DNA of 64,000 nt from positions 124,001-188,000 of the forward strand of contig OY253688.1 of NCBI GenBank assembly GCA_958009085.1, written 5' to 3'. Below the pieces are notes generated by a model. That model searched no databases. It had not been told where the DNA came from and saw only the letters and a list, made by a program, of their open reading frames with translations. Shown in pieces: positions 1 to 59,500 of this stretch. Source of the DNA: Protoeuglena noctilucae (Eukaryota). Position 1 is the stretch's first letter; every line of letters begins with the position of its first letter. The translations under genes and the position numbers were made by a program.

Positions 1-91
1 GCTAACCACCCTCAGCGCACCTCGTGAGCGTGAAGACACACAGCAGAGCAGAGCAGAGTGGGGAACGGGCAAGTGCATAGTTCGCGTGCAG

Positions 92-2677
92 GTGATGCGA
101 GATTTGAAAGACGCGGCGCCCTCGGAGCCTCCCAGCAGTGGCAGTGGCCGCCACACGGGGCGGCTGCCGATGCCGGTGTCGTCCATTTGGCCCTGGTCGA
201 CCCTCACCCCTTGGATGGCCGAGGAGATGCGGAAGAGGGCGAGGTGAGAGATGTGCGTTGCTTGGCTGTGTACTGTCACTGCGACGTGAGACGGGGCGGG
301 GGGGAGCTGAAGCGGGAGGACGGTGTCACCCGGCGCTGCGTCTGTGATTACACTAAAGGGTCTCGTAAATGCTTTCATGCAGGGCCGACCTTCTGCTCAG
401 TGCACAGCTCCGTGATCAGCACACCTATGGCGTCTTCAATCCCTACGACAACCCCGCCTATCCGTCACGTGAGCTCACGCATTGCATGCATGTGGGGTGG
501 GCTAGGATCATCACCTGGTTCTTTTGTATCAACATGCCTGCACACTGTCATGTTTGTGGCTGACACAGACCAGAACGGGCTCATAAGCATGACATGTGAC
601 CTCTCTCGCCCATCTCCCAACACGCAGTGTCGGAGTTCATCGAGTCACATGAGGCGTCAGAAACAGTCCACGACGCCCAGGTGTTCCAGATCCTCGGACT
701 GACGCCCCAGTCGCGGTTCGCTGAGGCCGACGTGCTGCGGCGGTGCGCGCGGGACAGGCGAGGGGCGGCGGGACTGGCAGCTGCGGGGCGATGTGTGTGA
801 AACGGATCATGCAGTGTTTGTGGCTGTGGCTGTCGTTCGTTTTGATGCAGAAGTTTGTGTGTATATAGCTGCCCTCGCAGCCCGTGGCACGGCGAGGCTC
901 TCCTGGCCCTGGCGGAGGCGCGGCTGCGTTCCCTGGCGGCAGTGGGGGTGGCGGAGAGGTCTGCCGAGTCATGGGCCGCCCTGGCTGCGGCGGTGGGGGC
1001 GGACTTAGAGCAACCGGGGTACCTGGTGAGTCACCAGATAGTCAGGCACAGCCACAGAAATGTCAATGGCGTTTGCGATTGGTGATAAAGCTGGGCAGCG
1101 ATGCTGTTGATATCACGATTCAATGACTTACCCGTTTATCTCTCTCTTTCGATCAATCATTCCAGGCTTCCTCGGTGGGCGTGACGTACGAGGGCGTGGG
1201 AGAGGGCGACGATGCCAGGCAGTGGTGGCTGACCGACGAGGAGATGCGACACGGGGAGCCGTTGGGGGTGTCGGCACAGGCGTGCTCGATCGCGGGGCGC
1301 AGGTGAGGGGTGGCTGGGGTTGTTGGGTGGTGTGGGGGTGCAGGTGAGGGTTGCTAGTGTGGGAAAGGGAAAGTCGAGAACCACGTCTTGACTTGACGCC
1401 TCGACATCTTGACACGTTGACATCTCAGCGTCCCACCATCTCAGCTTACTCACCATCTCCTCATCTGATTCCCTCTCACACAGGAAGGAGCGTGACGTGC
1501 GGGTGCAGTCTCTGAAGAATCTCTTTACCCACCATCTGCGCACGACGCCGCACCTCGAGGCACCGGACGCGGGGAGCCGAGGGAGGCACGTCTCCGCTCA
1601 GGGTGAGCAGCCGGGGCACGGAGATGGGACAAGGGATAGTAATGGGTTGAGGGGAGCATGTCTTCTTTGCCAATAGTGAGGTCGGTAATGTTCGGCTGCG
1701 GTTTTTCCTCAACATCCACAATTGTATCCATTCGCATCGCAGCCTGCGTATCAACTTCAGTGTCACTTCATCCTCATGCCCTCTCCTGCCCCCAGTCCGC
1801 CAGCGCATTGCGGATCTCAACCCCCTCGACACGCGGCTGCACGCGGCAGCCTCACGCATGCTGGACGATCGCCTGGCTGAGTTGCGGACAGCAGGTGCGT
1901 TTGTGGTGTTAAGAGATACAGCCGTGTATAGTTAATATAATATCTGTAGTAGATTGCATCACAGTCAAACCGACTGCGGCACACCCTCCCTTCTCTTGCC
2001 ATCACAGAACCAGCCCACCCTCGCCTCACACGTGTTTCCTTTCTTCATACACTATAGTTAGTAATTACCTTTCGTGTGTCTCTCCGCGACCGCAGGCGCC
2101 CTGCCCTCGTTCCCCTCGCTGACGGACGATGAGGCGGAGGCGGCCGTGAGGCGCGCCAGGGAGGCCACGGAGAGGCTGCAGTTGCTGGGGAGGGTACGGA
2201 GACAGGCGAGCGGTGTTGCTGAGAGATGGATTGCTAGGGATGAGATTGCTATGAATGCTGAGGAGGGATAAGGTGTGTGGGAGAGGCTACAGTTGATGGG
2301 AGGGCACGCAGACAGGCGAGCGGTGTTGCTGAGAGATGGATTGCTAGGGATGAGATTGCTATGAATGCTGAGCAGAGACGAGGTGTGTTATGAATGCTGT
2401 TGGCGATGACGTGTGTCCAGAAAGCCACCGAGATGCTGGTGTGATGCAGACCCCTGCTGTGACGCAGCCCTTCTTCAGCATCACTCGTCATCCCACGCAG
2501 GAATCGTCTGTGGAGCTCGCGGAGGGGTCACCTGGGCACACGGAGTTTGCCGCTTACCTCACGGGTGCCAGCGGGGACGGTCGCGGTGGCGAGGGCGGCG
2601 GGGGCGACGGTGCAGCAGAGGTGCAGGAGGCTCTGTGGGAGGCCATGCGGCTGGCGAACCTCGCCAGGGAGCTGTGA
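92..2677 (+). CDS. TPST: Plant-type protein-tyrosine sulfotransferase (TPST)-like protein, 3' part (gene starts before the window); about 8 exons in the window
   Basis: Spliced exons give IWPWSTLTPWMAEEM, NPYD, VHDAQVFQILGLTPQSRFAEADVLRRC, GEALLALAEARLRSLAAVGVAERSAES, VRVQSLKNL and RIADLNPLDTRLH. These match plant TPST motifs as I recall them (IWPWKYLVPWMRED, HNGATFQIAGLTNNS, VAKRRLDSMLYVGLTE, LNNLDVELY). Ends ...NLAREL-TGA at 2677. Confidence 0.8.
2169..2372 (+). repeat. Tandem duplication (~93 nt x2) of an exon end, its splice donor and the intron start
   Basis: 2169-2262 and 2280-2372 share gagaggct(g/a)cagttg...gacaggcgagcggtgttgctgagagatggattgctagggatgagattgctatgaatgctgag. The donor agg|gtacg becomes agg|gcacg in copy 2. 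Confidence 0.95.
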
Positions 2678-2888
2678 GTGCTTTGTTGAAGATAGTAGTG
2701 CTTGGAGTAGCCTTGTTCAAGCAGAGGCTCTCTAGTCCTATGGTGGTGTGCAGCACATGCGCAGCGTCGACAGCGCAGGGCGTGCAAGCCACAGAGACGA
2801 ACATGCGTGGAAGTGAAAGCCAGCTTGGCTGTTTGTGGCTCATGGCTTGCTAGTTATGGCTCGTTGCTCACTTGTGGCTGGCTATGCT

Positions 2889-5800
2889 TTAGTTTGCGCC
2901 CCCCGAGCGCTTGGCACTGGGACGGCTGCCGCCCCTCGCCAATGCGGCAATGACCTGCTTGGCCTTCGCCATGGCCCTCTGCAGCATGACAGGGTTGTCC
3001 TCGCACGTTTCCATTGCCCTGTAAAGGAGCGGGGAGGTGTGCAGTTAGATGGCATGGCTGCACTGGTCGCCTTTGGCAGGGCAGCCCAGTAAGAAAAGTC
3101 ATCAATTGCTCATAACGTACAGCAAGAACTCATCCATTCAGCGAGCACTCGTCGTCTCAACAGACATGTGCATGACACATGCGTACTACTCACCGCGCCA
3201 GCACCCTCAGTGCCTCCGGCACGTCTTCCGCCAAGCAGATGGCCATGGCCTGGTCCATAGCCTCCGCCGCCCTCTCGCTGTCCATCGGGCCAGAAGAGGA
3301 GTTCTTGGCCTTCTCACAAACATCCTTGACGGCCTCGTCAATGCACTCTGTGGCGATCTTGACGTCGAAGACGGGGGAGCCGGCTGCGTGCGTCTCCAAC
3401 CGGCTGCGAGACATGCACGTGGCGGGGCCGAATCGCCGTTGCACCGACTAGCATGGTCGCTTTGACAAGTATGGCGCTGGTCCTACAACCGAGCATGTGT
3501 GCACCAGCTGAGAGACAAGTTCCAACCGTGCGTGTGCCTCACCTGGCCAAGCGAGCCAGCCTGCTGTGGTGCTGAGGAGCCCTGGCGGCCTCGATCAGGG
3601 CCGCCATGACAGCACTGTTGGCTGGTCGCAAAGCACTCCGGACTTCTCTGAGCTGCTGCTCAGCTGCCGGGGCCTGGCTCTGCCTGCTGTCGTCGTCGCC
3701 TGACGCCTCATCGCTGCCACCGTCACCGTGTCCGTTGGCACTCGCAGCCCGCGGGCGCTTGCTGCCCTGAGCCGCGTGGCTGGGGCCTTCCGGGGCAGAA
3801 GCAGGCCTCTTGTGGCCATTCGCGCCACCGGCCAGGGTTGCACGCACAGGTGCCAGTTCTTGCGGCGCCCTCCTCGCCACTGCCGCCGGGGCAGGGTCGG
3901 CAGCCGCGGCCTGAATCACGCCGTCGTCCTCGCCCATCCTACCGCCAAGGTACCGCTGCCAGCGCATGAGAAACGCATAGCCGGTTCAATGTTGCTTACT
4001 CGCCACAGCAGACGGCGGCAACCGTGAGATAACCCAAGTTGAACAAGTGTCGGGCGCAACGCCTACGCCTGGACGCTTCCATCCAAGCCCTCTTCCCTGC
4101 CCTGCCCTCCCCGCCAACGCTTTGCAAGCACTAGCCTGCCCTCCTCCAGCACCATCTTGGCCAGGGCAGCGACACCTTCACAAGCATCCAACGCCCTGGG
4201 GTCGCGACGAGTGCAGGGGCATTGTCGGCGACCACTAGGGTGCCTTCCATGCTCCGTTGTCAATGTCGCACTATGGGGCGCTCGCCCTCACCTCGCCGTG
4301 GCCTCCAGCACTCCGGCCAGGTCTACCGCTCGTCGAATCGCCGCATACCGACCCACGGCCTCCACCGCAGCCGCCGTGTCGATTGATGCCTTGGAGTCGG
4401 CTAGACTCTGTGAGACCCGACTCAGGCCCGCATTTGCTTGCCGGTGGGCGATGTCGGCCACAGCACGGAGCGCAGGTGCGTCCCCAGATACCACACTTGC
4501 CAGCCTGTGAAGGAGGCCACACAACCTGGGCATGAACAGTCGCAACGCGATTGTTGACATGTGCAACTCTCACTAAAGCAACCCGTCACCTGGACAACAC
4601 CTTGAGAGCTTGCCCGGGGTCAGGGGCAGCAGAAGCCTCGATTACAAGGGTGAGTGCGTGACGGCCTTGTGATGACGATGCCATGTCCCAGCATGCCAAA
4701 ATCTGATGCCCAAGATCCACAGGTGGCCCTCCAATAGGTAACATGAAAGACCGATGGAATGCATTACCTCGTGTAGGCCAATCAAGGGCCAGTTGACCGC
4801 ATAAGTCCTTATCAGCCGCATCCTGGCCCACCGCACCGCCCGTGTCGCTGCACCGGCGCTGGCGGGAGGGGCGCTCTGCCGCACCGTCAGCTCCGTGCGA
4901 ATCACATGATCCCGGCGCCAACCGCTTCTGACCAATCAAGACTTGGGATGGGGGTGTTTGCAACGCTGCACCACCATGCGCTAGGTTGGCCCCATCAGCT
5001 GCGGCAGAATGGCCCGTCCTTTGCTTCTGCGCTCAACACAGGGTGGGATGGGGCTGCCTATCACGTGAGGCTCCTGGCCATTCGCGCCACCCAGCGCCTC
5101 AGGACCCCTTGCTGTGACACTCACCCAGGTCGTGGTCTTCACCTCTGCACCCGTCACGCCCTTCTCTGAACCTTCCACCTCGAAGCTCTCCATCCTTGTC
5201 TTAAAGTGCGATTCCCTCCAGCACAAAGTCACGTTCGTTATCACGAGCGAGGGGCCCGCATTGATCTGCCTCAACCCACAGATAGTCCCATTTTTCAGCA
5301 CGAGCGGGTAGTCCACTGTGAGTGGCCCCGTGACGAACCACGTAGAGCCACCCAGATCAACAACACCCCCTTTCACCAACTCACGATTCTTTAACAACTT
5401 GAACAAATCTTTTTCTGGCTCAGCCTCAGAAGCCTGCGGGCGGCAGGGTATGCGAGTGTCGCCGCAGCAACTCCCCCACGCTGAGCTGAGCAAAGGCTGA
5501 GGCTGGCGCATCACCTGTGGGAGACCCAAAGTGGGGTCAGGCAAGGAGTAACGCAGCTCCCCCATGACGCGCTCGGCCTTCAGGCACTCCCCATCATAAG
5601 CCCCGCTGCAAGAAAGACGACAGCATTCGTGAGTTGCTGGCGCTTGTGCAAGGACATGATGACCCGCTGTTAAACCTTACCCGCGCGAGCTCGAAAGAGC
5701 GCTGAAGATATTTTTTATGGCCCTCTCGGACGATACAGCGGGGTCGCCCTTCCATTGCCTATAAAGCTCGGTGAACTTCTCACACAGGGTAGGGTCCCTC

Positions 5801-8239
5801 CGAACCAAGCCCACAGTGATGTATGGCAGGTGGCGCTCTCGCAGCTCCTGCACGCGATTGGCAGAGCGTAAAATGAGGTAAGATGGGTTGCCTTATCCTT
5901 GCAATGGAGTGTAACGTGCAGCCCGGGAGCCAATAGAACGAAGGTGTGCCGGTACGCGATGGCGAGCTGTGTAGCGTGTTCCATACCTGCACAATGGTCT
6001 TCACCGCCTCGTTCACAATCGTTGCTGAGCCCCCCATTCCCCTGCCACGGTCGTCCTCGAAAGTCGCAAAGCCGGCGTGAGTGGGGGGCGCGGGCACTGC
6101 CCCATCCGTGGCCAGTGCCGCATGCAAAGGGCCGGCCCTACGATCAGCGGCAGGCTGACTTCCTCCGTCCCCCTCATCCTGGCTGACGATATCCCTCTCT
6201 TCAGGCTCCACTGCACCGTGGCCCATCGGCTGTGCCTGCAAAGAGTGGTACTTGAAGGCTGATGAGCAAAGCCGCAGCTGTAGCAATCGATGCGCGTCCC
6301 GGCCCGCCCTGAGGTGCTGGGAAAGGCCATGATCATTCTGACCAACTGCGCCCGGTTTGAGGGCTTGTCTAGCCTTCCAGCATAGCATGTGCGTTCTGTG
6401 CGAGCGCCTCACCTCAATTTGCTTTTCGGAAATTGCGCCCACTGGTATCTTCGGCTGCCTGTCATTAAGCAGGGGCGAATACATTTCCTCCTCTTCCGTC
6501 TTTTCTCCGTATTTCTCAATCTGTGACGATGCCTTTATGACCTGCATACATGGAGGCTAGCCACGCTTTGCCTCTGCACACATGATTCAATGGCACGTCA
6601 GATATTTCAACAAACATATGTCACACACCTGGTGTTCGCTGGAAGCGCCTTTCGGCCTTAAAGAGAACGTGATGTCCCCGCGCTCTTGCTCCCAAACCAA
6701 GTCCTCAAATACATTTTTACTGCAGGGATACCAGCAACGTTAGCTGTCACTTCAGAATGGAATAAGGGGCGGAGTGGCGTAGTCTGCGAAGGACATGCAA
6801 GTGCTGCTCACCTCTTGCTGTGGAAGAGTGCCCAGAAGCACACCCACAGCCAATTGACCGCCTCTTGGTGTTCCAGGATTTCCATGTCGTAGCATCCCTG
6901 TCTTACATACTCCAGGGCAACATCTCGCTCAAAGCCCGCCGCAAGGAGCTCCCGCTTGGAAACACTGTTCCCGCTGTTGCGGTCAATCGCCTGCGGGCCG
7001 CAGAAGCCTTGCCTCCGTCATCAGCAAGTCGCATAAAAAGTAGCAGCCGGCTTGCGGCACCCTTTCGACGGCCGCACCTCGCGGATCATTCTCCAGAAGG
7101 TCGCTGGCTTCAGATGCTTCTTCTTTGGAAATTTTTCACGCATAATGTCCTGCGGACGGAGCCATGCGCCAGGAACTCACAGGAAGAAGGTTCATGAACG
7201 CAATTCCATCCGCGCTTGGGCTTGCCGAGGCTCACCGGCTTGCGCATCGATGCTGCAGCGCCTCGTGGCCCACTCGAGCGGCCAAAGCCACGCCGGTCTA
7301 TGCTCTCCATCGTTTAGGCTTTTTTTTCAGGCTAGATTCACTGACACCTATGCAAGCAGGGACAGGAGCTTTCACGCACGCGAGAGGCGCTTCGCCGCCT
7401 ATCACGACGGGACCGCCCCTGTCCAAGGAGCGTAGCAACCGAGAAGAGCGACAACACTTTAACACAAGCGTGATGAAAAACGAATGTACATCAAAGCCAA
7501 TGAACAGAGTACCAAGATTCTTCGCGGGCAAATTTTCTGTAAGTCTTGCGTGCGGTGGTTTCAAGTTTCTTAAAGTTTCCCCGAGTGTTTCTTCTCAGCG
7601 CAACAGAATACGTGAAAAATGACGCGGCAGAATACAGAAGGAGCGCTTGCGAGTGCGCAAGCCAATGCTTAGAACCAAGATGCATGTCTTGGCACAGTTT
7701 TTATATGTAACGAGTTTAGGCCATAGTTTCCAGCAAATTGTCGCTCATTTCTTTTGTTTTAAGACCTGAATTCCATGGTATGTGCAATTCAGGCTGACAT
7801 GAACGGGATAGGCGCGGAGGGTGATGTCCGAGTCGGGGGGACACAAGTCTTTCCCCCCGACATGGACGCTGCTGAGTTCAAGCGCTCCATGACATGTAGC
7901 TGTAGCTATCATGATAGTGTATACCGCGTCTGCATGGGGTGAGCAGTCACGGGCGCGGCAGCGTCCGCAGTGAGCGTCGTCGCAGGTCCCTGGAGTCCCT
8001 AGGCCTGCGAGCATGCGCAGCCACGCTCCGCTAGGCCCCAAGCTGCTAGCAGCCGACGTCGGCTGCAGGTCCAAGCAAGCTGCCGAACTCTCATGTGCCG
8101 CTAAGCTCCGGAATCCACCGCGCATTCCTGTGGAGCTGGCTTGGGCGGTGGATGCACCGCGCCCGGCACCAGGCCCGCCAACCCACGGGAACTCCTCACC
8201 GGTGGGCGGATTTCCAGGCGCTGCCTTGGACTTATCCAT
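2889..8239 (-). CDS. Orphan modular protein A: two winged-helix-like domains, NLS-like linkers and two helical modules; may be two genes; 5' end uncertain
   Basis: Phase-compatible GT-AG exons can be followed through most of ~7150 to TAA at 2889, and several are homologous to exons of the gene at 9185-13619. Upstream of 7150 I cannot follow a clean frame; ATG 8239 (MDKSKAAP) is only a candidate. There is an in-frame TAG at 4063 unless it is spliced out. Confidence 0.6.
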
Positions 8240-9184
8240 GACTGCTGCTGCCACGATGCTGCGCGGAGGCGAGGCGGTGCTGCACGCTGGGCCAGGTGCA
8301 TGTGTCAGAATGCGGAGTCGGGGCGTCGCGTCAAGAGGCCAGACGCGACTCGCGCGTCCCACATTTCCGGGACTGCGCTCGACTTGAGGCTGCGGAGGGC
8401 TGCGACGGCTTCTCTGGTCAGGCAGGTGAGGGCGGGGTGGGTTTTCGAAATGGAAGGGTCGTTTGAGCTGGCGCCCGGTGATGCCCGGCGGTTCCCGCGG
8501 CACGACACCCTGAGCAACAGATACATAATTTGCACCAAAATTGCTGGCAGACATATGGGGCCGCGATCGCCGGCGCGCTGACCCGGCGCGGGCGTGGCGC
8601 GCCCTGCAGCCTGTGCTGGGTCGCGCCGGGCCGCCGACGCCACTTTGGCAGCCACGGGGTCTGCAGTCGTCTTTCTGAGATGTAACTGATGTCACAAAGT
8701 GAAGCATTGACGGGCGGGAGAGGGGGGAACATGTCTTTTATGTCCTTTTCAAACTGAGGCGGGGCACCGCCGCCCCGTCCCGCTGCGGCGCACCCTGCTG
8801 GGCTCCGCACGCGCATTTGTGTTTTTGTTTGCGAGTCGCGCCCCGTGGGGTGCGATGGAACGGGGCTTTCCGAGCGCGGGATGGGCGTTGTTAGCCATGC
8901 ACATTCTTGTGGGCGGGCGGCAGCTTCCGGAGGTCCCGGCTGTGCGCTCCCTCCGGCTGATTCATGTGGGATTGCGTAGGCACGGCGTGATCTATGCGCG
9001 TCGCGTGCTGCATTTCGAGTTTCGGGGGGCAGCGGCAGGTTGTTAGCTTCGTGCATGAGTGTGCAGCGCTAGAAGCGCTGCATGCATGCCAAATTATAAT
9101 GAATAAAATGCCATGCGAAATTGGTAAACCTATTTAAAGCTTTTGATTGCAGTGTCGATTTCTGGAAAGCGCTATGTACCAAGG

Positions 9185-12100
9185 ATGATTGTGGGAGCAG
9201 CCGGGTCAATCAACCCGCTGGCGCGCGACCAAGAACGCTTGCAGGCGCGCGACCAAGATCGCCTCTACCAACGAGCCGAGGCAAGTCTGCAGTGTGCCTT
9301 GGGCGTTGCACCTCTTCGACGTCTTTAGCGGGTCGCAACTCCAGCGTCACCCCAATAACCCGCAGAACCGTCAAGCAAACAGCCATGTCCGGGAGGACTC
9401 TGCCGCAGTTGGCAATGACGCGGAGGGACGGGCCCCGCGCTCATCCCTGAGCATGCAGGCCCAGCAGGGCAGCGGCAGCAGCAGGGATGCGGACCGCCAG
9501 GGCATCTCAAGCTCGTCGCAAGTGGCGGCACCGGCCGGCAGGGCTCCGCCAGTGCCAGAGTCGGCGCCTGTGCGTGCAACCCCGGCCGGCGCTTGTGACA
9601 GAGTCAAGCGCTTGCTCCACGCGGTAAGGGAGCCTAAGCGCAGCGTGCTGCGCCATGCCGGGCCGAGGCAGCTACCCAGGCACGCAATGTGCCCGTATGC
9701 TGACCACAGGAGCTCCGTCGCATTTGGGAGAAGGAGGGCAGGCGAGCGGATTCCAGCCTTCGTCGCCTCGTCGATTCGCCCGACACTGAGGACTTCCGCC
9801 GGGCGCTCGCCAGCCTGAACTCTGACGGGCCGTGCAGTGCCGAGGAGCAAGCGATATTGGCAGAAGAGGTCCTGACGTCCTTCATCTTCGGCCTCTTGTG
9901 CGTGACAACATTCCTGAGCCAACGCTGTCTGCGGTCGCCACGGCTGCCACACCTTCAATTTAAAGCTTCTGACTCCTCGCAGTAAGGAGTCGGACCCGGA
10001 CATCGCATGGATACCTGGTGTCGGGCGCTTCGTCCTTCGTGTCGACTACCCCGACATGCCAGAGTTCCCCAGAAAGGTGAGAGCCGCAACGAGGTCTGTC
10101 ATATCGACCCAGTGCATCTGGCCCTGCAATTTCTGACGTATGGGTTCCTTGCCTCCCCCGCAGCTTCGTAGGAGTAGCATAGCCGCTCAGGACCTCAACT
10201 ACAACAGCGACTCTGGCAGCGAGGAGGAGGAGGACGAGGAGGAGGGCGGCCCTTCCCAGCGACAAGAACATGCTGATCTGACTGGCAAGAGCGTTCCGCG
10301 CTTGCTCACTGCGGTAAGCTAGCCCAAGCGCACCGATAATGAGCCATGCTATGTCGAGCCATGCAGGGCAGAGGCAGGTGCCCAGACACACCGTGCGTCC
10401 CCATGCTCATTGCAGGAGCTCCGCGAACTGAAAACCCTCGGCATCCATCGCGTGTCGGACGCCCAGCTGCGCGAGATGGGGTTCAACACCGACATCACTC
10501 GGGAGTACGTGCGGCAGGGGTGCCATGATGAGAGCATCCTTGAAGAGGACACGGAATTTGAGCGGTGCGCCAAGAAGTTCTTCGACTCTGCGCGTCGCTG
10601 CTTCGGGTGACCTCTCTGGCGGGTGCTGCAGCTCAGCGCTGGCCTCGTGCTTTGTGCGCATCTTGTGTATCAAGATGGATTAGGACCGTGTGCTTCCATC
10701 ATGTGTCATACCTCCGCAGGGAGAGGGTCCACCCTGTCGTGAAGTGCGAGGCTCGACGGCAAGCTCTACTTCTCCCTGAAGCCTCGGCACGGCAGTGCGG
10801 GCGGGGTGAAAGCTTGACTGGGTGGCATTTGCGCGTGGTCAGCTGAAGTGTGGTTGTCCATTCATGTATCTCATTCGCCTTCTCTCCTGCCTCTGCGCGC
10901 AGGGAGGCAGTGGCGGCGCCAATGGTCAGCTGCAGGGCAACACGCGGCGTCCCCACCAGCGTGGTCGACTGGGCAGGGACGGGGCCGCAGGGGAGCCCAG
11001 GACGGGGCGTAAGCAGCTGAGGAAGGGCACCGTGCGCAGGATTCTGCTGAAGGTGAGCGCGCTGGCACCCTGTAGGAGCAGGTACGGATCCGCATGGGTG
11101 GCTCTGGTACCCGTGCAGCGTAGTTGGGGACACCTCGAGCACAAGCGCCTTTGCTTGCAGTGGCTGAAGAAGATGCGCGAGCAGGGCATCGGATCGGTGA
11201 CCAGGACGGAGCTGAGGCGAGGCGGATTCAGAAAAAAAATCAAGGCAGAGTACGAGCGCCAGGGGTGTCCGGTGAAAAAATTTTGGTGCAAATTCTCCGA
11301 CGCCGCCACCAAGTGCTTCTTGTGAGCTGAGCGGCGCATGGATAGACTTATGTTATGTGATGAACGCAGGCCTGGCTAGCGTTAGGCTTGTCCGATTGCC
11401 GCTGCCCCTGATGGCCTCTGCAGCAATCGTGTTGACAAGTACATCGGGGCTGAGGCCACCCCTGACGGGGACATGCGGTTCTTCCTCAGAGAGCTCCACG
11501 GCGGCAACGGGCAGGTTGGTACCACTGAAGCTGTGTTGTGCTTACCTGAAGCTGGAGCTATATTGGCTGCGGGGTACATCCACGATGCATCATCCACGAT
11601 GCATGGTGTGGCATGCGCACTTTCTGATGGCCAGCAGGTGGGCCACGGCACAGCAGAGCCCGAGGGGGAGGAGGACGCTGAGGAGGGTGCAGAGGGGGAG
11701 GAGGAGGAGGAGGAGGAGGAGGAGGAGGAAGAGGATGACGAGGAGGGCGAGGATGACGAGGAGGCTGGGGAGGGCGAGGAGGGAGAGGAGTCTGGGGAGG
11801 CTGGGGAGGGCGAGGAGGCTGGGGAGGGTGGGGAGGGCGAAGAGGCTGCTGGGGAGGGTGAGGAGGGTGAGGAGGGCGAGGAGGCTGGGGAGGGTGAGGA
11901 GGGCGAGGAGGCTGGGGAGGGTGAGGAGGGCGAGGAGGCTGGGGAGGGCGAGGAGGCTGGGGATGGCGAGGAGGCTGGGGAGGGTGAGGAGGGCGAGGAG
12001 GCTGGGGAGGGTGAGGAGGGCGAGGAGGCTGGGGAGGGTGAGGAGGGTGGGGAGGGTGAGGAGGAGGAGGAAGAGGACGACAACATGACACAGCCGACTG

Positions 12101-13619
12101 CTGACCCTACCTTGGCAGCAGTGACCAGCAGGGTGCCGCCAGCGCCAGAAGCAGCACCTATGCGTGCACCCCTGACCTGTACCACAAATGGCCACAAGAG
12201 GCCTGCTCCTGCCCCGGCGGAAGGCCCGAGCCATGGAACCCAGGGCAGCAAGCGCCCGCGGACTGCGATCCCCAGCGGTGACGGTGACGGTGGCGATGAG
12301 GCGGCAGGGGCAGACGGATGCACGCACAGCTTGGGCCAGGCTGCCACGCTGTGTGTGGGGAGTGCACCCCTGGTGCTCGGGGAGCTGGTGATGACCGTAT
12401 ATGACCTGGCTCAGTCAAGCTATGGCCCCCTCATTCCCCTTCTGCACAACGCCGCCACTGGTACCGATCCCATCTGCGCCCTGACTCACCCAGAAAGGTG
12501 AGGGTCTGGCGCAACGATGGTGGCGTCACAGAGTGTGACGACACGGTCTGCACGAGCTGCCCCCTTAATGGCTCATGTTGCTTACATTGCAGCCTGCGGG
12601 AGGTGGACGCCGGAAACGCCTCCACCAAGCATGCCTACTTCCTCATCGCATCGCGTGTGGTGGAGGTGACGTACGCTCAGGTTGTCGACGCCGCTGACGT
12701 CATGGTCCCAAGCACGCGGCTGTGGCCGTCCACGTCCCTATACGCGGAAATCGATGGAGCGCAGGATTCTCTTGCACTGCTGAAGGCTCTGGGAAGGCGA
12801 GGGAGGGGAGCTTGCTGCAGGACACTAGCTGCTGAAGCTGCGACTGCGTTGACAAATGGGCCAGCCGTGCGAGCCACAACATGTGTCGTGTCTTGGCTGC
12901 AGTGCTCTGGTGGAGGTCGGGGACATCCCGCTTTGGCGCAAGCAGCACCTGGAAAGGGCTCTGTGGGTGCTGGCGGAGCTGACGGCGCACGGGCTGACCG
13001 CCCAGGATGATACTCAGCTCGTGTCACGACTCGTCGCAGTGTGGAACCTTGCTCGCAGGGGCCATGGCCCTCTCCTACTCGCCCTGCACGAGGCCGCCAC
13101 GGCGCCCAGTCCCATGCGCGCCCTCGATGCCCTGGCCAGGTGACGGGCCACTGCGGCTGCGTCGCTATTGAGGCTGAACACGAACCCACTCGAGCCAAAC
13201 TCCGGTCACTACCACTGCCGTCGCAGGGCGGCGGAATTGGTGGCCCGAGATGCCTCTGCTATGTGCGCCGTGGCCGCCCTCATTGGCCAGTGGGTCAGCG
13301 AGGCCCAGAGCCAGGAGTTCGTGGGCGCTTCCGAGATCTCTAGCTCGCAGGGTGTGGAGGCTATGGTTCACTACGCGGCACTCCGGCGGGCAGCTTGCCT
13401 GGCCAGTTTGGCAAAGGCCCTGGCGAGGTGGGCGCAAGGGTCACATTATTGGTCGCGTTGGCTGCGTGTGCTGCTGGACCGGTCAGTCCGCCCCGACTCA
13501 TGCTGCGCCTTGACCTCAGGACCCTGGAGGCTTGTTGGAGTGTCCCCGACGCGTGGAGGAATGTGCTGGAGGAGGCCCAGAGCGCTCTAAGGGAGCATGA
13601 GCGTCGTCTCGGGCAGTGA
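9185..13619 (+). CDS. Orphan modular protein B, paralog of A: three winged-helix-like domains, Glu/Gly tract, NLS-like linker and two helical modules; probable frameshift near 10750
   Basis: About 15 phase-compatible exons, e.g. ELRELKTLGIHRVSDAQLREMGFNTDITREYVRQGC, WLKKMREQGIGSVTRTELRRGGFRKKIKAEYERQGC and GVEAMVHYAALRRAACLASLAKALAR. Ends RRLGQ-TGA at 13619. The start at 9185 depends on a GC donor at 9281. Confidence 0.65.
11660..12080 (+). repeat. Coding purine-rich minisatellite encoding ~140 aa of Glu/Gly repeats (EEAGEGEEG)n
   Basis: Imperfect 18- and 27-nt units gaggaggctggggagggt(gaggagggc) within the open frame 11473-12501. Confidence 0.95.
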
Positions 13620-13916
13620 TGGGGCCGCAAGCTGCTGCGGTGCATGCAGCAGGCGGGGGCTGGGCATCGATGGTGGCCCGATGTGATCGCGATCCTCATG
13701 TGAGACCTTTCAAAAGCCTCCCAGCAGAGTCGAGGCTGAAGCGTTGGCTGGCTAGCAAGATCTAGCAAGATCCTTGAATCACAGCGCCAGGGCATCCATA
13801 GCTGCCAGCGCACGAGGCAACTCCAGCGCGCGCCGCCACGCCATCCCCGTCAGCCATCCCATCCAACCCAGGTGCTCCCCTGTGCATTCCCAACATTCCA
13901 GCAGCCTCATTGGCCC

Positions 13917-15524
13917 TCAGAACTTGAACACCTGGTCTTTGCTGTACCCTAGCTCCTTCAGGATGCCCTTCACCTCCCCCTGGTCCTTGGGAGACACCTT
14001 GGCACCTGCGTGTGCGGCACAGAAGCACGATATGGAAAGCCTGACTGGGCATTTCACCCAAAATGGTCTGCGCTTTGTAGCCAACGCATTGAGGCGGTCC
14101 ATGTACGCCACTCTGCGAGCCATCCCCAGTCATCCCCACCCCTCACCTGACACCACGTTCATCATCCCCGGGGGCCCGCAGACGAACACCATGGACCCTG
14201 CCTGGTCGGCGGGGGGCAGGTGCGCCTTGAGCATGTCTTTGGTCAGGTACCCCACCCCGCCCTTCCAGAACAGGCCCCCGAGGCTGGCCTTGTCCACCAC
14301 GTAGTAGACCTTCAGCCGGTCGCTGTGGGCCTGCGAGGATGGGGGCAGGCGGGTGGGAGAGGGATGAGATGAGCGAGAGAGGGACGACAGAGCAACAACC
14401 ACCACCTGCGACTGATCCTGGTGGGCTCCTGCCCGCATGTTACTCAACCATCCAATCACTGTGTCTCTCGTATTCCCCTCACCTTGGCCCATGCGTCGAT
14501 GCGGTCCTTGAGGATGATGTCCGACTCGGTCTGGTTGGCGAACACCAGGGACACCTGCGTCTTGTCGTCCTTGTTGGAGAGGATCTCGTCAATCACCTGC
14601 AGCATCGGGGTGATGCCGGAGCCGCCCGCCACCATGCCGATGTGGCGGTACATGTTGGGCTGCAGGAAAAGGTGGGGGTGCGCGTGGAAGGGAGTGAGCG
14701 AGACGGTCGATGCCTGTCGATGCTCCCATCATCACAGTGGTCGATTATCACGATGCCACCATCCTATGCACCCTGTTCATCACACCTTGTAGTCCAGCTT
14801 CACGATCGGGCCCTTCATCTCCAGCTTGTCACCGACCTTGAGGTCGCCCACGTGCTTGCTGACCTGCAGAACAGCATCGAAACAACGATTGAAGCGCTTG
14901 GGTAGCGAAGCGCGCCTGCGTTGTGCGATCCACACAGACGCATGCACCCACGCACCTTGCCCTGTGGGTAGACCTTGACGACCAGGTCGAGGTAGCCGGC
15001 GGCGGTGCGGGGAGAGGTGGGCGTGTACGGCCGCACGGCCATCTCCGTCGACCCGTCCTCCTTCGGCACCGGGCCGCGGACCAGCAAGCACGACGCGACC
15101 GGCATGCCCGAGTTCTTGCCGTCGGGGAGCTCGAAGCGGAACAGGTGCGTGTTGCCCGTCAGCTTCTCGCGGTGCTGCGGGGAGCGAGGCGCGGGCGACG
15201 CGTGTCGGTTGCAGGGTTGGGGCCCCTAGCGGCGCGGGGGGGACGCATCGCCGGCCACCTGGAGCTTGAATGCGCGCCACTCATCCGGATTCAGCGCACT
15301 CTTCGACGCATCGGCCGCGGCGCTGCTCTGCGGGCGCGGGGGGCGGTCACGAGGGCGGTCACCCTCGGCACCCGCGAGCGCGCGCTACGCCCCTCGAGAC
15401 GCTCCCCGGGACCATCGGCGGACTATATACTACATACATGCATCATCTGCATCCCTAACGCGGTCGCCAGCGTGCCCGTCGCGCACGCCGCGACGAGCGG
15501 GCGCGCCCTCAAGAGCGCCTGCAT
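13917..15524 (-). CDS. NADH-cytochrome b5 reductase, mitochondrial (MCR1/CBR2-like), 7 exons
   Basis: FAD motif [23 protein letters not shown] motifs [13 protein letters not shown] and [10 protein letters not shown], and the C-terminal [23 protein letters not shown] typical of the MCR1 type. Confidence 0.92.
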
Positions 15525-16024
15525 CGTGGCGTAACTACAGCGGGGTCACGAACACGGAAGTCAGCGCGGGTGAAGATGTCACGCGAAGAAGCGTCGGCGA
15601 GTCTGGGCGAGGTGCGAGGGCGACGCGCCGGATGAGTGTGCGCGCCTGCGCCAGTGAGCGGCGCAAGCGCGCGCGTTTCGTGCCGATGCGGCGTCGGATG
15701 TCGGCATTCAACGGTCGTCACCCATGCTTTATGCCCATGCCATGCATCGCGCAGCACCTCGTCACCGCGGGCTCACAGGACGTGACGTGAGGCAGGCAGG
15801 CGAGACTGGGGAAGAAGCAAAGCCACTAGAGGGGAAACGCGCGGCTTTGGGGACACGGCAGCGCGCAGTCGCTGCGCTGCGCAACGCGACACCGCAAGCG
15901 CGCGGATAGGTGGTTGGTCAGTGAGCAACAGGGCACGAAACGGACGCAGTCTTCTAGTCGGGTTGGATCCATGCATACATCAGAACACAAAAGGAAAGGG
16001 CCGGTGCGTGTCTTGCAACGCATC

Positions 16025-52094: not shown

Positions 52095-52317
52095 CCTACA
52101 CCTCCCCGCAGCTGCGGCCTTCAACACGGCGAGACAGCTGGTGAAACGCTGCCACGTCTGACGAGTCTGTGTCTCAGGGCTCCTGTCTCCGTCTGTCTTG
52201 GGGACCTGGCAGCGGTGCGGCACGGCACGCTCAGCAGAACCGCGCGAGGCGTCTGGAACGAGCCCACACGTAGGAGCGTGGTCTTGATGATCAAAAGGCT
52301 GCAAGGGAGTTGTCGCG

Positions 52318-53094
52318 ATGTTCAGGAAGGGCGGGAATACGACGACCATCAAATCTGGTGCGCAGCTATTTCTGTGTGCCTGTGGCGCTCGTCCGGGCGT
52401 GCAGGTTGTCAGCAGCAGGTGTTCTTCAACTTGCACGCAACCGCTCTTTGGGTGCAGGGGGGCGCATCAAGCTTCACACGACTTGGGACGACGGGAGCGA
52501 GCTCATCGAGGAATTCGACGCGAATACCGACGAGCTCCTCGTCCGTCGCATCCGCCGGAAGACGGCGGTGGGTTCCGTGGGCGAGTGGGAGTGGCTGGCG
52601 GGAGATCCACCGGCGCCGTCCACGAGTGGAACGCCCTCCTAGCCGAGAGCCCCCGGAACCCCGTCTTCAGGTGCGCTCGTGCCCTGCAAGCTGCCCTTGC
52701 TTCAGAGCAGCTCTGCAAGCGACGCCGATGCCCCGACCGGCCCCCCGGCTCTCGCGCCCGCAGCCGATGTGACCAGCGTGAGGTGTTCCAGTGGCGCATT
52801 CGCAACGTGCCGTACCCGCCCGAGGTGTTTTCGGTGACCGCGGACCCCGCAGAAAGAAAGTTGGTGATCCGCACGGCGAATAAAAAGTACTTCAAGCGCT
52901 TCCCCGTGCCGGAGCTGGACCTGCTGGGGCTGCCGCTCGAGCAGCACCGGTTGCAGTGGCACCACGCCAACATCACCCTGGTGGTCAGCTACGCCAAGCC
53001 ACCGGCCGTGTTGGCAGCGGAGAACGAGGAGCGCGCGCAGCGGCACGCCATGAGGGGCAAGGAGGAAGGAAACGTCGATTGCAAGCAGCAGTAG
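52318..53094 (+). CDS. DPCD: DPCD (deleted in primary ciliary dyskinesia) homolog with an apparent 1-nt frameshift near 52630
   Basis: GRIKLHTTWDDGSELIEEFD...LLVRRIR...GEWEW in one frame; ESPRNPVF|R...FQWRIRNVPYP...IRTANKKYFKRF...DCKQQ-stop in another. Confidence 0.88.
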   Translation: MFRKGGNTTTIKSGAQLFLCACGARPGVQVVSSRCSSTCTQPLFGCRGAHQASHDLGRRERAHRGIRREYRRAPRPSHPPEDGGGFRGRVGVAGGRSTGAVHEWNALLAESPRNPVFRCARALQAALASEQLCKRRRCPDRPPGSRARSRCDQREVFQWRIRNVPYPPEVFSVTADPAERKLVIRTANKKYFKRFPVPELDLLGLPLEQHRLQWHHANITLVVSYAKPPAVLAAENEERAQRHAMRGKEEGNVDCKQQ

Positions 53095-56566: not shown

Positions 56567-59500
56567 ATGAGCGCCTCGCCCGAACGGGAGGCGGCTGAAG
56601 GTGGGCGGGGAGATGGCCCCAGGGGTGCGGCATATGGGGCTCCCGGCGGTCCCATCGCAAGCTGGGGGACGCACGCGTGGCGTGGCCGTCCGTGCGGCCC
56701 GCCGTGTCGCCCAGGGGCGCGCTGGTCGGCCGCGCAGGCTGAGGGGTCCTTGACCCGGAATTTTTACGGCCGGCGTGCGCACCTCTCCCGCAGGGCCGTA
56801 CTCCGACACGCAATCCAGCGTCCGGGTGGCGGTGCGCATCCGTCCGCTGCTCGAGCATGAGTCCTCGCACCCGACGGAAATGCTCCACCTCGACGCGACG
56901 GGGAAGAGGGTCGTCACGGGCCGGCAGGACTCGCGCATGTCCAAAGAGTACGGCTTCGACGCCGTCCTGGGTCCAGACGCCACGCAGGACGACGTGGCGG
57001 AGGCCGTGGGCCTCGACCAGCTCCTCCAGCGGGTGCTCCAGGGGTACAACGGCACCGTGTTCGCGTACGGGCAGACGGGCTCCGGGAAGACGCACACCAT
57101 GGAGGGTCTGGGGTACGGCTCCTCGGTCGACGGCACCGCGGCCGCCGAGCCGGACCCGGGGCTCATCCCGCGGGCCATTGTTGACCTCTTTGACGCCGCG
57201 TCACGGGAGGCGAGCGCCAACAGCAGGCAGATCCTCATCACCTGCTCCTTCGTGCAAATCTACATGGAGCAGTGCTACGATCTCCTGGGCCCCTCCGCCG
57301 GCGCGGCGGGCATCGTGTCGGCGGTGAGCGGCGCTGCGGACCTCCGCACATGCGCAGGGGCCTCGCGCCTCCTCCCGAGCTCCGGGGGCTGTGCGATACG
57401 TGCACGTGGTTAGATGCCTTGTTTCCGTCCGGTCTGTCACAAGCGACCGTCAGCGGCCACCCCACGGCCCGCGCAGGACAACGTTTTTGACGAGGCCTTC
57501 AACCGCGGCCCCAAGCTGCGCCAGGGCCTGCGCCTCCGCTGGTCGAAGGACGACGGGTTCTACCTGGAAAACATCTACCGCGTGGAGTGCATGGACGCCG
57601 CCGGTGCGCCGCGCGGCATGCCTAACGCCCCCTACGGCCCTCGCCCGCGCCTCTATCGCGCGCCGAAACCGCTCCCGCCGCCCCCGCCCTTCGCGCAGAC
57701 GCGCTGAGTCACTTCGAGCGTGGCGTCCGCAACCGCATCACCGCCTCCCACCGGATGAACCGGTACTCGTCCCGGTCCCACTGCCTCTTCACGCTCGAGC
57801 TGTCCTCCTCGCCCATCGGGCACCCGGAGGAGGTCATTCGCTCCAAATTGGTCATGGTCGACCTCGCCGGGTGAGAGCGCGCGCTCGCGCGCGCTGGGGC
57901 CGACGCAGCGAGAGCTCCTGCACACGCGCCCTCGCTGCGTGGTGTCGACACATGGGCCCGGCGCCATCCGCAGGTCCGAGAAGCAGGCGCAGACGGGCGC
58001 GACGAGTGGGCTGACGCAGAAGGAGAGCATCTCCATTAACCAATCGCTCATGACCCTCCGGTGAGCACGCGGCAGGTCGCGCCCCCCCAGCCTAGCTTAG
58101 CCACTGTTGTTTACCGACCCCACCCCGTTCCTACTCCCCAGGAAGGTCATCTCGGGCTTGGCCGAGGGCGAAAAGCGTCCCCACATCCCCTTCCGCGACT
58201 CCAAGCTCACGTCGCTGCTGCAGCCGTCCCTGGGCGGCAGCTCCTTCACCTCCATGGTCGCCTGCGTGAGCCCCAGCGACCTGTACCACGACGACAACGT
58301 CAGCACGCTCGACTACGCCTCCCTGGCGCAGCGCATCACCAACCGCGTCGTACGCAACGAGGACCCCCGCGCGCGCCTCATCCGCCAGCTGCGCGAGCAG
58401 GTCACCTTCCTGCAGTCCCAGATCGCCCTCATCAAGCCCCTCCTGCCGAGCGAAACCGCCCTCGACCAGCTCCTGCCCCCGCCCATCGACCCGGCCCCGC
58501 GACGCAGCTCCACGGACGGGAGCACGCGCAACGACGGGGGTCCTTCCCGGGCGCTCAGGAGCTTCCCCTCCCTGGTCAAGGACTCGCCCCGCAAGTCCGT
58601 CGCGGCCGACCCGGACATCGACCCCCCGACGCCCACGGGCCCACGGCTGCCCCGGCGCGCCAGCAGTTTCTCTGCACGGTCGCTGCAGGCCATGCCCTCG
58701 CTGCCGCGCGCCCGGGGAAGCGGCAAAGACGGCAAGGACGGCGGCTCGGCCTCGCGCTCCGTCGGCCGCAAGACGCCGGTGCCGGGCTCCGGTCGCCCTC
58801 CCTCCGGGTCGTCGGTTGTGAGCTCAATGGAGGGCGGGGGCGGTCTGTTTGAGAACCGCGGGGACCACTTGGAGCGCGTGACGGAGGACGCCGAGGGCGA
58901 GAAGGACGCGCAGGGGCAGCGCGTGGACGGGCAGCAGGGCAGGGAGGCGTTGGAGGCGTTGGCGCACAAGCTGGTGGCGGCCGTGGCAGTCGTGCGGGGC
59001 CTGCAGCAGGTGAAGGACGCTTGGTGCGATGCCTGGGGCCCTCGCCTAGGTAAACTCCTCTTGTCAGCATGGGCTTGGCTTGGTACATGGTGCCATGCGT
59101 GATGACATGGTCGCTTCCCTGCAGGCCAACGCGCGTCTGCGGGAGGAGTACACACGCGCGACGCAGCGGGCGGAGGAGCTTGAGGAGACGAACGGGGCGG
59201 TGCACCGGGAGAACGAGCATCTGCGGGAGAGGGTGGAGATGCTGGAGGGGGTGGTGGTGATGGACGCGGCGGGGGTGGCGGCGGCGCAGGGGGCGGCGGA
59301 GCAGGCGGGGACGTCGGGGGACGTGGCAGCGGCGCGTCGGGGCCTGCACACGACGAGCACGGCCATGCTGGTGGAGCTGGTGGACCTGCGGCGGGAGAAC
59401 GAGGTCCTGCGGCAGCAGCTGCGAGCGGCGGGGGGGCAGCCGGTGGCGACCGTGGCGGGCATCGAGGCGCGGTCAGGGAGAGCGTCGGTGCCCCCGGGCG

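Follow-up and report, generated by a model that had tools for sequence, protein, structure and literature searches.

The block at positions 2889–13619 of a 64,000-nucleotide stretch of Protoeuglena noctilucae DNA (contig OY253688.1, positions 124,001 to 188,000; the whole stretch is called the window below) appears to hold two divergent, intron-rich protein-coding paralogs, L on the minus and R on the plus strand, which are apparently lineage-restricted and built from duplicated exon modules. We hold this reading with moderate confidence as a whole and with high confidence as far as the anatomy and the duplication history of the pair are concerned. The window is GC-rich (about 0.62) and clearly eukaryotic. 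As a preliminary description of this DNA had proposed, L and R form a divergent pair of multi-exon paralogs: tblastx and blastp of open reading frame (ORF) pieces gave collinear similarity blocks between the minus strand at 2.9–7.0 kb and the plus strand at 9.7–13.6 kb, and the predicted stop codons, at 2889 for L and at 13619 for R, coincide with the outer coordinates of that description. The gene models were obtained with a codon table trained on 15 housekeeping ORFs and an exon-chaining script, followed by correction of the splice sites by eye, and are tentative:

2889..7247, minus strand: gene L, tentative model with 16 exons and 784 codons, isoelectric point (pI) 8.35
7247-7236, 7149-7078, 6990-6812, 6458-6413, 6345-6252, 6024-5987, 5847-5681, 5605-5515, minus strand: predicted exons 1-8 of L
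5433-5385, 5315-5125, 4927-4590, 4504-4292, 4195-4067, 3938-3543, 3403-3194, 3018-2889, minus strand: predicted exons 9-16 of L
9453..13619, plus strand: gene R, tentative model with 14 exons and 906 codons, pI 4.5
9453-9623, 9710-9897, 9983-10076, 10191-10313, 10416-10606, 10745-10794, 10991-11052, plus strand: predicted exons 1-7 of R
11161-11321, 11424-11518, 11654-12497, 12593-12796 (GC donor), 12903-13139, 13227-13427, 13520-13619, plus strand: predicted exons 8-14 of R
7248..9452, no strand: spacer between the two putative start codons, presumed promoter and 5' untranslated sequence

In the spliced models the frames are open over all 784 (L) and 906 (R) codons. The start, exons 4–10 and the junction 4067/3938 are the uncertain parts of L; in R these are the start and the exons 10745-10794 and 11424-11518. 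Introns measure 67–353 nt across both models (85–196 nt for the 13 introns of R). All 15 introns of L and 12 of the 13 of R start with GT, the remaining one in R starts with GC, and all 13 introns of R end with AG. The donors that follow the similarity blocks read G/GTGAG, G/GTGAC or G/GTAAG and the acceptors CAG/, the slash marking the junction. The spacer had been placed near 8.3–9.1 kb, a position that is not confirmed by the models, in which the best start codons are at 7247 and 9453, with both 5' ends uncertain. At 8–9 kb the spacer region shows the GC maximum of the region (0.657), and it contains no ORF with a positive coding score on the strand of either gene. A different 5' exon of L near 8.2 kb, starting at the ATG of ORF 7745-8737, had a lower exon-chaining score than the start at 7247 and was rejected.

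Each gene carries two copies of a helical module of about 150 residues that is encoded by three exons (a, b and c), in agreement with what had been described before:

12349..13011, plus strand: R module 1 (a 12349-12497, b 12593-12796 with GC donor, c 12903-13011)
13012..13619, plus strand: R module 2 (a 13012-13139, b 13227-13427, c 13520-13616, then stop)
4067..4741, minus strand: L module 1 (a 4741-4590, b 4504-4292, c 4195-4067)
2889..3658, minus strand: L module 2, the most divergent copy (a 3658-3543, b 3403-3194, c 3018-2892, then stop)

The pairwise identity of the modules is 18–39%. In all four copies the two module introns are located at the same alignment columns (51 and 139) and in phase 2, with the codon split after its second base, and reading frames run uninterrupted through all 11 module exons of both genes, with phases that match; R has exon c of its module 1 fused with exon a of its module 2 into a single exon. 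Five of the six module pairs were matched or exceeded by at most 1 of 1000 shuffled sequences, the sixth (R module 1 with L module 2) by 34 of 1000. The highest similarity was found between R module 2 and L module 1 (z 20), and L module 2 reached z 7.7, 4.2 and 2.5 against the other three modules. Single exons were also used in leave-one-out searches, in which hidden Markov models (HMMs) were run against the 1,635 six-frame pieces of the window. Three of four a exons were recovered at rank 1, two of four b exons were significant and one more stood at rank 1 without being significant, and none of the four c exons was significant. Exons a and b of R module 2 gave E 1.7e-9 and 2.8e-4, and those of L module 1 gave E 1.4e-4 and 5.6e-7; exon b of R module 1 was missed (rank 57), and the single exons of L module 2 were non-significant. 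Searching the remaining 52 kb of the window with HMMs of the four module types revealed no additional copy. The end of exon b in R module 1 that is backed by homology requires a GC-AG intron at 12797-12902 (AAG/GCGAGG), and if a GT donor at 12671, which has the same phase, were used instead, this exon would lose 42 codons.

A basic linker of low complexity precedes R module 1 and L module 2, and R additionally contains a long acidic tract in front of it:

12073..12344, plus strand: R linker with KRP-x16-KRPR, similar to L linker 2 at the DNA level
3663..3931, minus strand: L linker 2 with KRP-x15-KRPR, shuffle z 22.9 against the R linker (0 of 1000)
11662..12077, plus strand: acidic tract of R, about 44 copies of the 9-nt unit GAGGAGGGT, reading Glu-Glu-Gly

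The two linkers had been described as similar at the DNA level, and indeed 3931-3663 and 12073-12344 align with 74.46% identity over 278 bp (E 8e-47), being the only segment of L and R that can be aligned as DNA. A weaker linker-like stretch at 4927-4742 on the minus strand lies ahead of L module 1 (15 of 1000 shuffles against the R linker), and a 36-nt piece of the linker recurs in the first exon of R (inverted repeat I4). The classical nuclear localisation signal consists of a K-K/R-X-K/R core with an optional upstream KR, and sequences matching this import pattern, as a motif match only, are present as KRPAPAPAEGPSHGTQGSKRPR in R and KRPASAPEGPSHAAQGSKRPR in L. Thus, of the proposed combination of a nuclear localisation signal with an acidic tract, the signal-like motif is found in both proteins and the acidic tract in R but not in L. 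With a net charge of about -87 over 160 residues the tract is encoded by a 9-nt tandem array at 11671-12064 that is restricted to R, where a second, short acidic run is located at 10221-10250.

Two further observations are related to this tract. Just downstream of the stop codon of L, at 2169-2388, a 110-nt unit forms two tandem copies with 91% matches, and its start is ~67–73% identical to the GAG/GGG-rich units of the acidic tract (family D3). On the strand opposite to the tract, at 11382-12414 (minus), a long open frame with Ser/Pro-rich repeats is present, and one antisense frame scores higher than the sense frame with the housekeeping codons (39.9, with a GC content at third codon positions (GC3) of 0.85, versus 22.9). 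We retained the plus strand because the sense frame is open all the way into the conserved linker and exon a; a gene for a Ser/Pro-rich product on the opposite strand would be a less likely alternative.

The N-terminal parts of both proteins carry a domain of about 70 residues that is encoded by two exons. The short one closes in phase 0 with '..(K/R)RLLxA', and the main exon runs from phase 0, after CAG, to phase 2. Clear copies are two in R and one in L, and R also has a decayed one:

10416..10606, plus strand: R-D2, main domain exon with EYVRQGC, phase 0 after CAG to phase 2 before GTGAC
11161..11321, plus strand: R-D3, main domain exon with EYERQGC, strongly basic, leave-one-out E 1.6e-7
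6812..6990, minus strand: L-D1, main domain exon with EYVRQGC, leave-one-out E 1.3e-11, tentative preceding exon 7149-7078
9710..9897, plus strand: R-D1, degenerate domain copy without the motif, protein similarity marginal (19 of 1000 shuffles at best)
5681..5847, minus strand: L-D2, candidate degenerate domain copy starting with 'ELRER', with exon layout and the same phases only

When all six frames of the 64 kb were scanned with a relaxed form of the motif, three matches were obtained, at 10503-10523 (+), 11248-11268 (+) and 6912-6892 (-), all of them within L and R. The claim that domains with an EY(V/E)RQGC motif are repeated in both genes therefore applies to R with its two motif copies and not to L, which has one. 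R-D2, R-D3 and L-D1 are mutually related (z 10–17, with none of 1000 shuffles attaining the observed score), and all three were recovered at rank 1 in the leave-one-out searches with E ≤1.6e-7; R-D2 was the clearest of them (E 4.8e-14, z 15–17 against R-D3 and L-D1). The exon before R-D2 (10191-10313) terminates with '..PRLLTA' ahead of GTAAG and the one before R-D3 (10991-11052) with '..RRILLK' ahead of GTGAG. R-D3 has a net charge of about +21 over 80 residues. Its putative intron at 11053-11160 is 108 nt long and open in frame, so that retention would add 36 residues and leave the protein unbroken; the database ORF P0001 continues straight across it. Just upstream of L-D1 the sequence 'ARLLRPA' in another frame could point to a frameshift, which we set aside as the upstream exon 7149-7078 fits the usual phase. 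R-D1 and L-D2 have only the exon layout and the 'ELR' start in common with the clear copies, and shuffle tests of L-D2 showed no significant similarity (>350 of 1000). For R-D1 the DNA is more informative: 9652-9717, covering the last 58 nt of the intron and 8 nt of the exon, is 76% identical to 10358-10423 upstream of R-D2 (family D5), and because this identity spans an intron end and an exon start it shows a genomic duplication that took in the intron.

The differences between the paralogs suggest a history in several steps. The proportions of nonsynonymous and synonymous differences (pN and pS) are 0.41–0.47 and 0.56–0.66 for the a and b exons, and 0.40 and 0.81 for the domain exons L-D1 and R-D2, where third positions carry most changes. 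As synonymous sites are saturated and the introns cannot be aligned, the gene and module duplications are probably old and seem to have been followed by some purifying selection. The linker has a nonsynonymous rate (dN) of 0.24 and a synonymous rate (dS) of 0.29, giving dN/dS of about 0.8, and its differences are distributed as 21/14/17 over the three codon positions. This low dS compared with the saturated values elsewhere and the even spread over codon positions indicate that the exchange of the linker is much younger. The 278-bp segment may thus have been exchanged later between the inverted gene copies, most simply by gene conversion, and would since then have drifted almost neutrally except around the basic motif, which is the best-conserved part of the linker. 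Moreover, the best module pairing is R-H2 with L-H1 (module 2 of R and module 1 of L), yet the common linker is located before R-H1 and L-H2, which makes mosaics of the two genes.

Several searches were performed for relatives of the pair outside of the locus. The 30 ORF pieces of L and R that were compared with Pfam all remained below the gathering thresholds of its families (best 17.4 bits versus a cut-off of 27), and at E ≤10 neither the three domain copies gave a match nor the four a exons a meaningful row; as a control at the exon level, 13 of 14 neighbouring ORFs matched families. A HMMER profile of four domain copies found one match among 1,835,955,588 representative proteins, which is ORF P0001 of the locus itself (10864-11325, R-D3). 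Word searches against a collection of 5.8 billion clusters gave 68 candidates for the R-D2 ORF among longer proteins, none of which scored, 252 candidates for the b-exon profile at near lengths with three matches that are all ORFs of the window, and 505 candidates for the ORF in the middle of L with one match, its own ORF P0005. Neither 2.9 million viral contigs (118 pattern matches, none confirmed), nor sequence searches of the Protein Data Bank (PDB; chance rows only, E ≥0.74), nor a fold search with the domain model (nothing above noise), nor a protein atlas (no usable match for the domain) revealed a relative. A motif-seeded scan of 241 million metagenome records gave 208 pattern matches and four loci, all of them bacterial sigma factors. 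Rfam detected no family at window positions 1-16000, and neither motif string was found in the searched papers. These results bear out the statement that no known family is recognisable in L and R, and the two genes appear to represent an orphan, apparently lineage-restricted and undescribed family. The open stretch of L at 5125-5433 (minus), within ORF 4981-5676, is without counterpart in R and was modelled as two exons but may be one. By eye it is rich in strands ('..VVDLGGSTWFVTGPLTVDYPLVLKNGTI..') and looks like the beginning of a beta-helix. Pectate_lyase_5, proposed for the ORF in the middle of L by the protein atlas (0.81 at rank 25), was kept as a weak lead only, and an AlphaFold2 model of this stretch was unusable (pLDDT 38).

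The N-terminal domain had been described as winged-helix-like. A winged helix consists of a three-helix core followed by a beta-hairpin wing. This assignment is not supported, as the AlphaFold2 model of the 64-residue main exon (pLDDT 77.8, from an alignment of three sequences covering the main exon only) shows five helices and no strand, and no solved fold matched it above noise. A limited resemblance exists to region 4 of sigma-70 (PF04545): 29 columns of the domain, '..LGI.RVS...L.E.GF...ITREYVRQ', align with the four metagenomic bacterial sigma factors with an hhalign probability of 90.8%, a score that is post hoc since these sigma factors had been picked from the 241 million records by the motif itself. 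The alignment preserves the small/hydrophobic spacing of a helix-turn-helix, and at the aligned stretch the model shows a short helix that is followed, after a turn of two residues, by a longer one. On the other hand, the host is eukaryotic, conserved Cys residues and additional helices set the domain apart, none of the three copies matched PF04545 at E ≤10 (with HMMER filters that drop many weak matches), and sigma factors appeared neither in the PDB sequence search nor among the 50 best fold matches. Taken together this hints, at most, at a helix-turn-helix-like element within the domain. The sole PDB row for the domain profile was a consensus tetratricopeptide repeat ('EYvRQGCyDeeiLee' versus 'AYEKQGDYDEAIEYY'), which we treated as a chance match (E 1.8); with 20 residues per repeat and other signature positions that misfit in spacing, the domain is unlike this family.

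From these features a function can be proposed tentatively, and we rate it as possible rather than probable: L and R may be nuclear scaffold proteins that contact nucleic acids or chromatin. The basic KRP..KRPR motif would allow both proteins to enter the nucleus, the small helical and partly very basic N-terminal domains could contact nucleic acid or chromatin, and the acidic tract of R together with the helical modules might serve as protein-binding scaffolds, with L and R acting as diverged partners or as sub-functionalised duplicates. Compared with what is generally known of acidic nuclear chaperones of the nucleoplasmin/nucleolin type, R likewise has a bipartite-looking basic motif beside a long Glu-rich tract, but no likeness in sequence or fold was found and the long tract is present in R only. 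A bolder version, which we consider rather unlikely, would make the EY(V/E)RQGC domain a new eukaryotic helix-turn-helix-like fold for DNA or RNA binding, and would place L and R at the origin of a family of lineage-specific nuclear regulators, which expands as exon modules with symmetric phases are duplicated and whose import linker is homogenised by gene conversion between the inverted copies.

The coding signal of both genes is present but weak. GC at codon positions 1/2/3 is 0.64/0.51/0.70 in L and 0.67/0.51/0.75 in R without the acidic tract, which is the pattern of the housekeeping ORFs (0.68/0.53/0.82) in weaker form, with intron GC of 0.58 (L) and 0.61 (R). The exons with the clearest similarity also have the best coding scores, with GC3 of 0.74–0.84. 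Concerning expression, two metatranscriptome runs of a single study have contigs that contain shares of 0.35 and 0.25 of the words sampled from window positions 3000-12999; this is a weak sign of expression, as an RNA run may also carry the stretch as DNA. Two further metatranscriptome runs with shares of 0.19 and 0.16 were not counted as evidence. The locus is also present in several marine metagenome runs and is assembled on 14–18 contigs in the protein collection.

Several points weigh against two functional paralogs built from modules. Every splice junction in L and R is a prediction, one of them requires the GC donor and another a weak GTAGGC donor with a TAG acceptor. As the module borders were picked partly by similarity, the shuffle tests of whole modules favour the models, a bias from which the BLAST E-values at the ORF level and the leave-one-out searches are free; in the latter the c exons, L module 2 and exon b of R module 1 failed to be recovered on their own. 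The codon bias is far below that of the neighbouring genes and most raw ORF pieces are negative with the housekeeping codon table, the dN/dS near 1 implies little constraint on the linker, and at 5–8 kb L is low in GC (0.53–0.58) with a poorly defined structure. The low-GC stretch itself, at 5000–8000, extends from the middle of L across its 5' part into the spacer, compared with 0.60–0.68 elsewhere in the first 20 kb.

Some of these points would also be expected if one or both loci were decaying or non-functional, either as pseudogenes or as transcribed but untranslated remnants, with open frames that result partly from the picking of exons. The weak codon bias, the weak or non-canonical splice sites at two module junctions, the ill-defined, GC-poor middle of L and the nearly neutral linker fit such a decay, and no relative was found in the protein searches that could show long-term conservation. 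Nevertheless we regard it as improbable, because the 11 module exons are all open and matched in phase, pN is well below pS in the domain exon, the best coding scores coincide with the clearest similarity and a quarter to a third of the words sampled are present in RNA-derived contigs. A transposable element or an integrated virus, with L and R as its cargo or inverted ends, is a far more remote explanation. It would account for the inverted arrangement with a common 278-bp segment, for the lower GC at 5–8 kb and for the orphan sequences, but transposase, integrase, reverse-transcriptase and capsid families were absent from the Pfam results on the 30 ORF pieces, neither the rest of the window nor the viral contigs contained additional copies or relatives, the sole inverted repeat is the coding linker and the introns carry host splice signals.

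A different view of what the proteins do, to which we give as little weight as to gene decay, takes the helical modules as highly diverged alpha-solenoid units of the octotricopeptide-repeat (OPR/HPR) type and L and R as RNA-binding factors that are targeted to organelles and belong to a fast-evolving, often lineage-specific class with an expansion in green algae. In the literature, OPR/HPR proteins are described as arrays of degenerate helical-hairpin repeats of 38–40 residues (PMC8635915), with a PPPEW or LWALAR-type motif in OPR proteins (PMC5541062), the latter reported for the OPR protein CCS2 (PMC8635915, PMC5541062). OPR proteins are further portrayed as rich in Ala and Gly, with inserts of low complexity and with very divergent motifs between which gaps may occur, and many Chlorophyta-specific families and singletons as well as tandem paralogs are mentioned (PMC8635915, PMC5541062, PMC13126933). 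L and R resemble them in being helical, Ala-rich (12.5–15.3% Ala), fast-evolving and lineage-specific, with low-complexity inserts and clustered paralogs, and exon a of R module 2 reads '..VAVWNLARRGHGPLLLAL..', where 'VWNLAR' recalls the LWALAR motif. However, this W-x-L-A-R form occurs in one of the four a exons, two others having 'CWDMAS' and 'VYDLAQ' and the fourth none, and no PPPEW was seen in the models. No repeat relation between exons a and b was found (hhalign probability 0.9%, with only the last 14 columns in common), and no tandem periodicity of 38–40 residues was seen. Although a Chlamydomonas mitoribosomal OPR protein has been solved (PDB entry 7pkt, according to PMC13126933), the profiles of exons a and b and the joined c1+a2 exon found no solved chain at E ≤10 beyond unrelated chance rows. 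No FAST or RAP family was seen in the Pfam scans of the pieces of L and R, and the unrelated N-terminal domain, the nuclear-import-like motif and the acidic tract distinguish L and R from OPR proteins.

If the pair is expressed, it would be a compact example of how a eukaryote assembles new multi-domain proteins from modules that are flanked by introns of the same phase and duplicated within and between neighbouring genes, with one part of the pair homogenised by gene conversion and the remainder diverged past recognition at the DNA level. Since neither the 1.84 billion representative proteins nor the fold search yielded a relative of the N-terminal domain, it may represent a new kind of small helical domain. 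Lineage-specific orphan genes are frequent in algal genomes, and L and R point to no particular biological process.

The preliminary description had placed the pair between housekeeping genes, which holds for the right side with a NAD-binding oxidoreductase at 14.1–14.7 kb, whereas the left side at window positions 1-2850 contains 11 ORFs of at least 90 codons without a Pfam match. Other ORFs in the neighbourhood code for parts of an E1-E2 ATPase, a kinesin, a protein kinase, an Arf GTPase, UbiA and DPCD as well as an LCM methyltransferase, a PLD-like protein, a lipid desaturase, an ACT-domain protein and EF-hands, all of them split by introns. The DPCD-family gene is located at 52291-53094 (+) and the kinesin at 56754-59102 (+); as DPCD is linked to motile cilia, its presence suggests a flagellate life stage of the organism.

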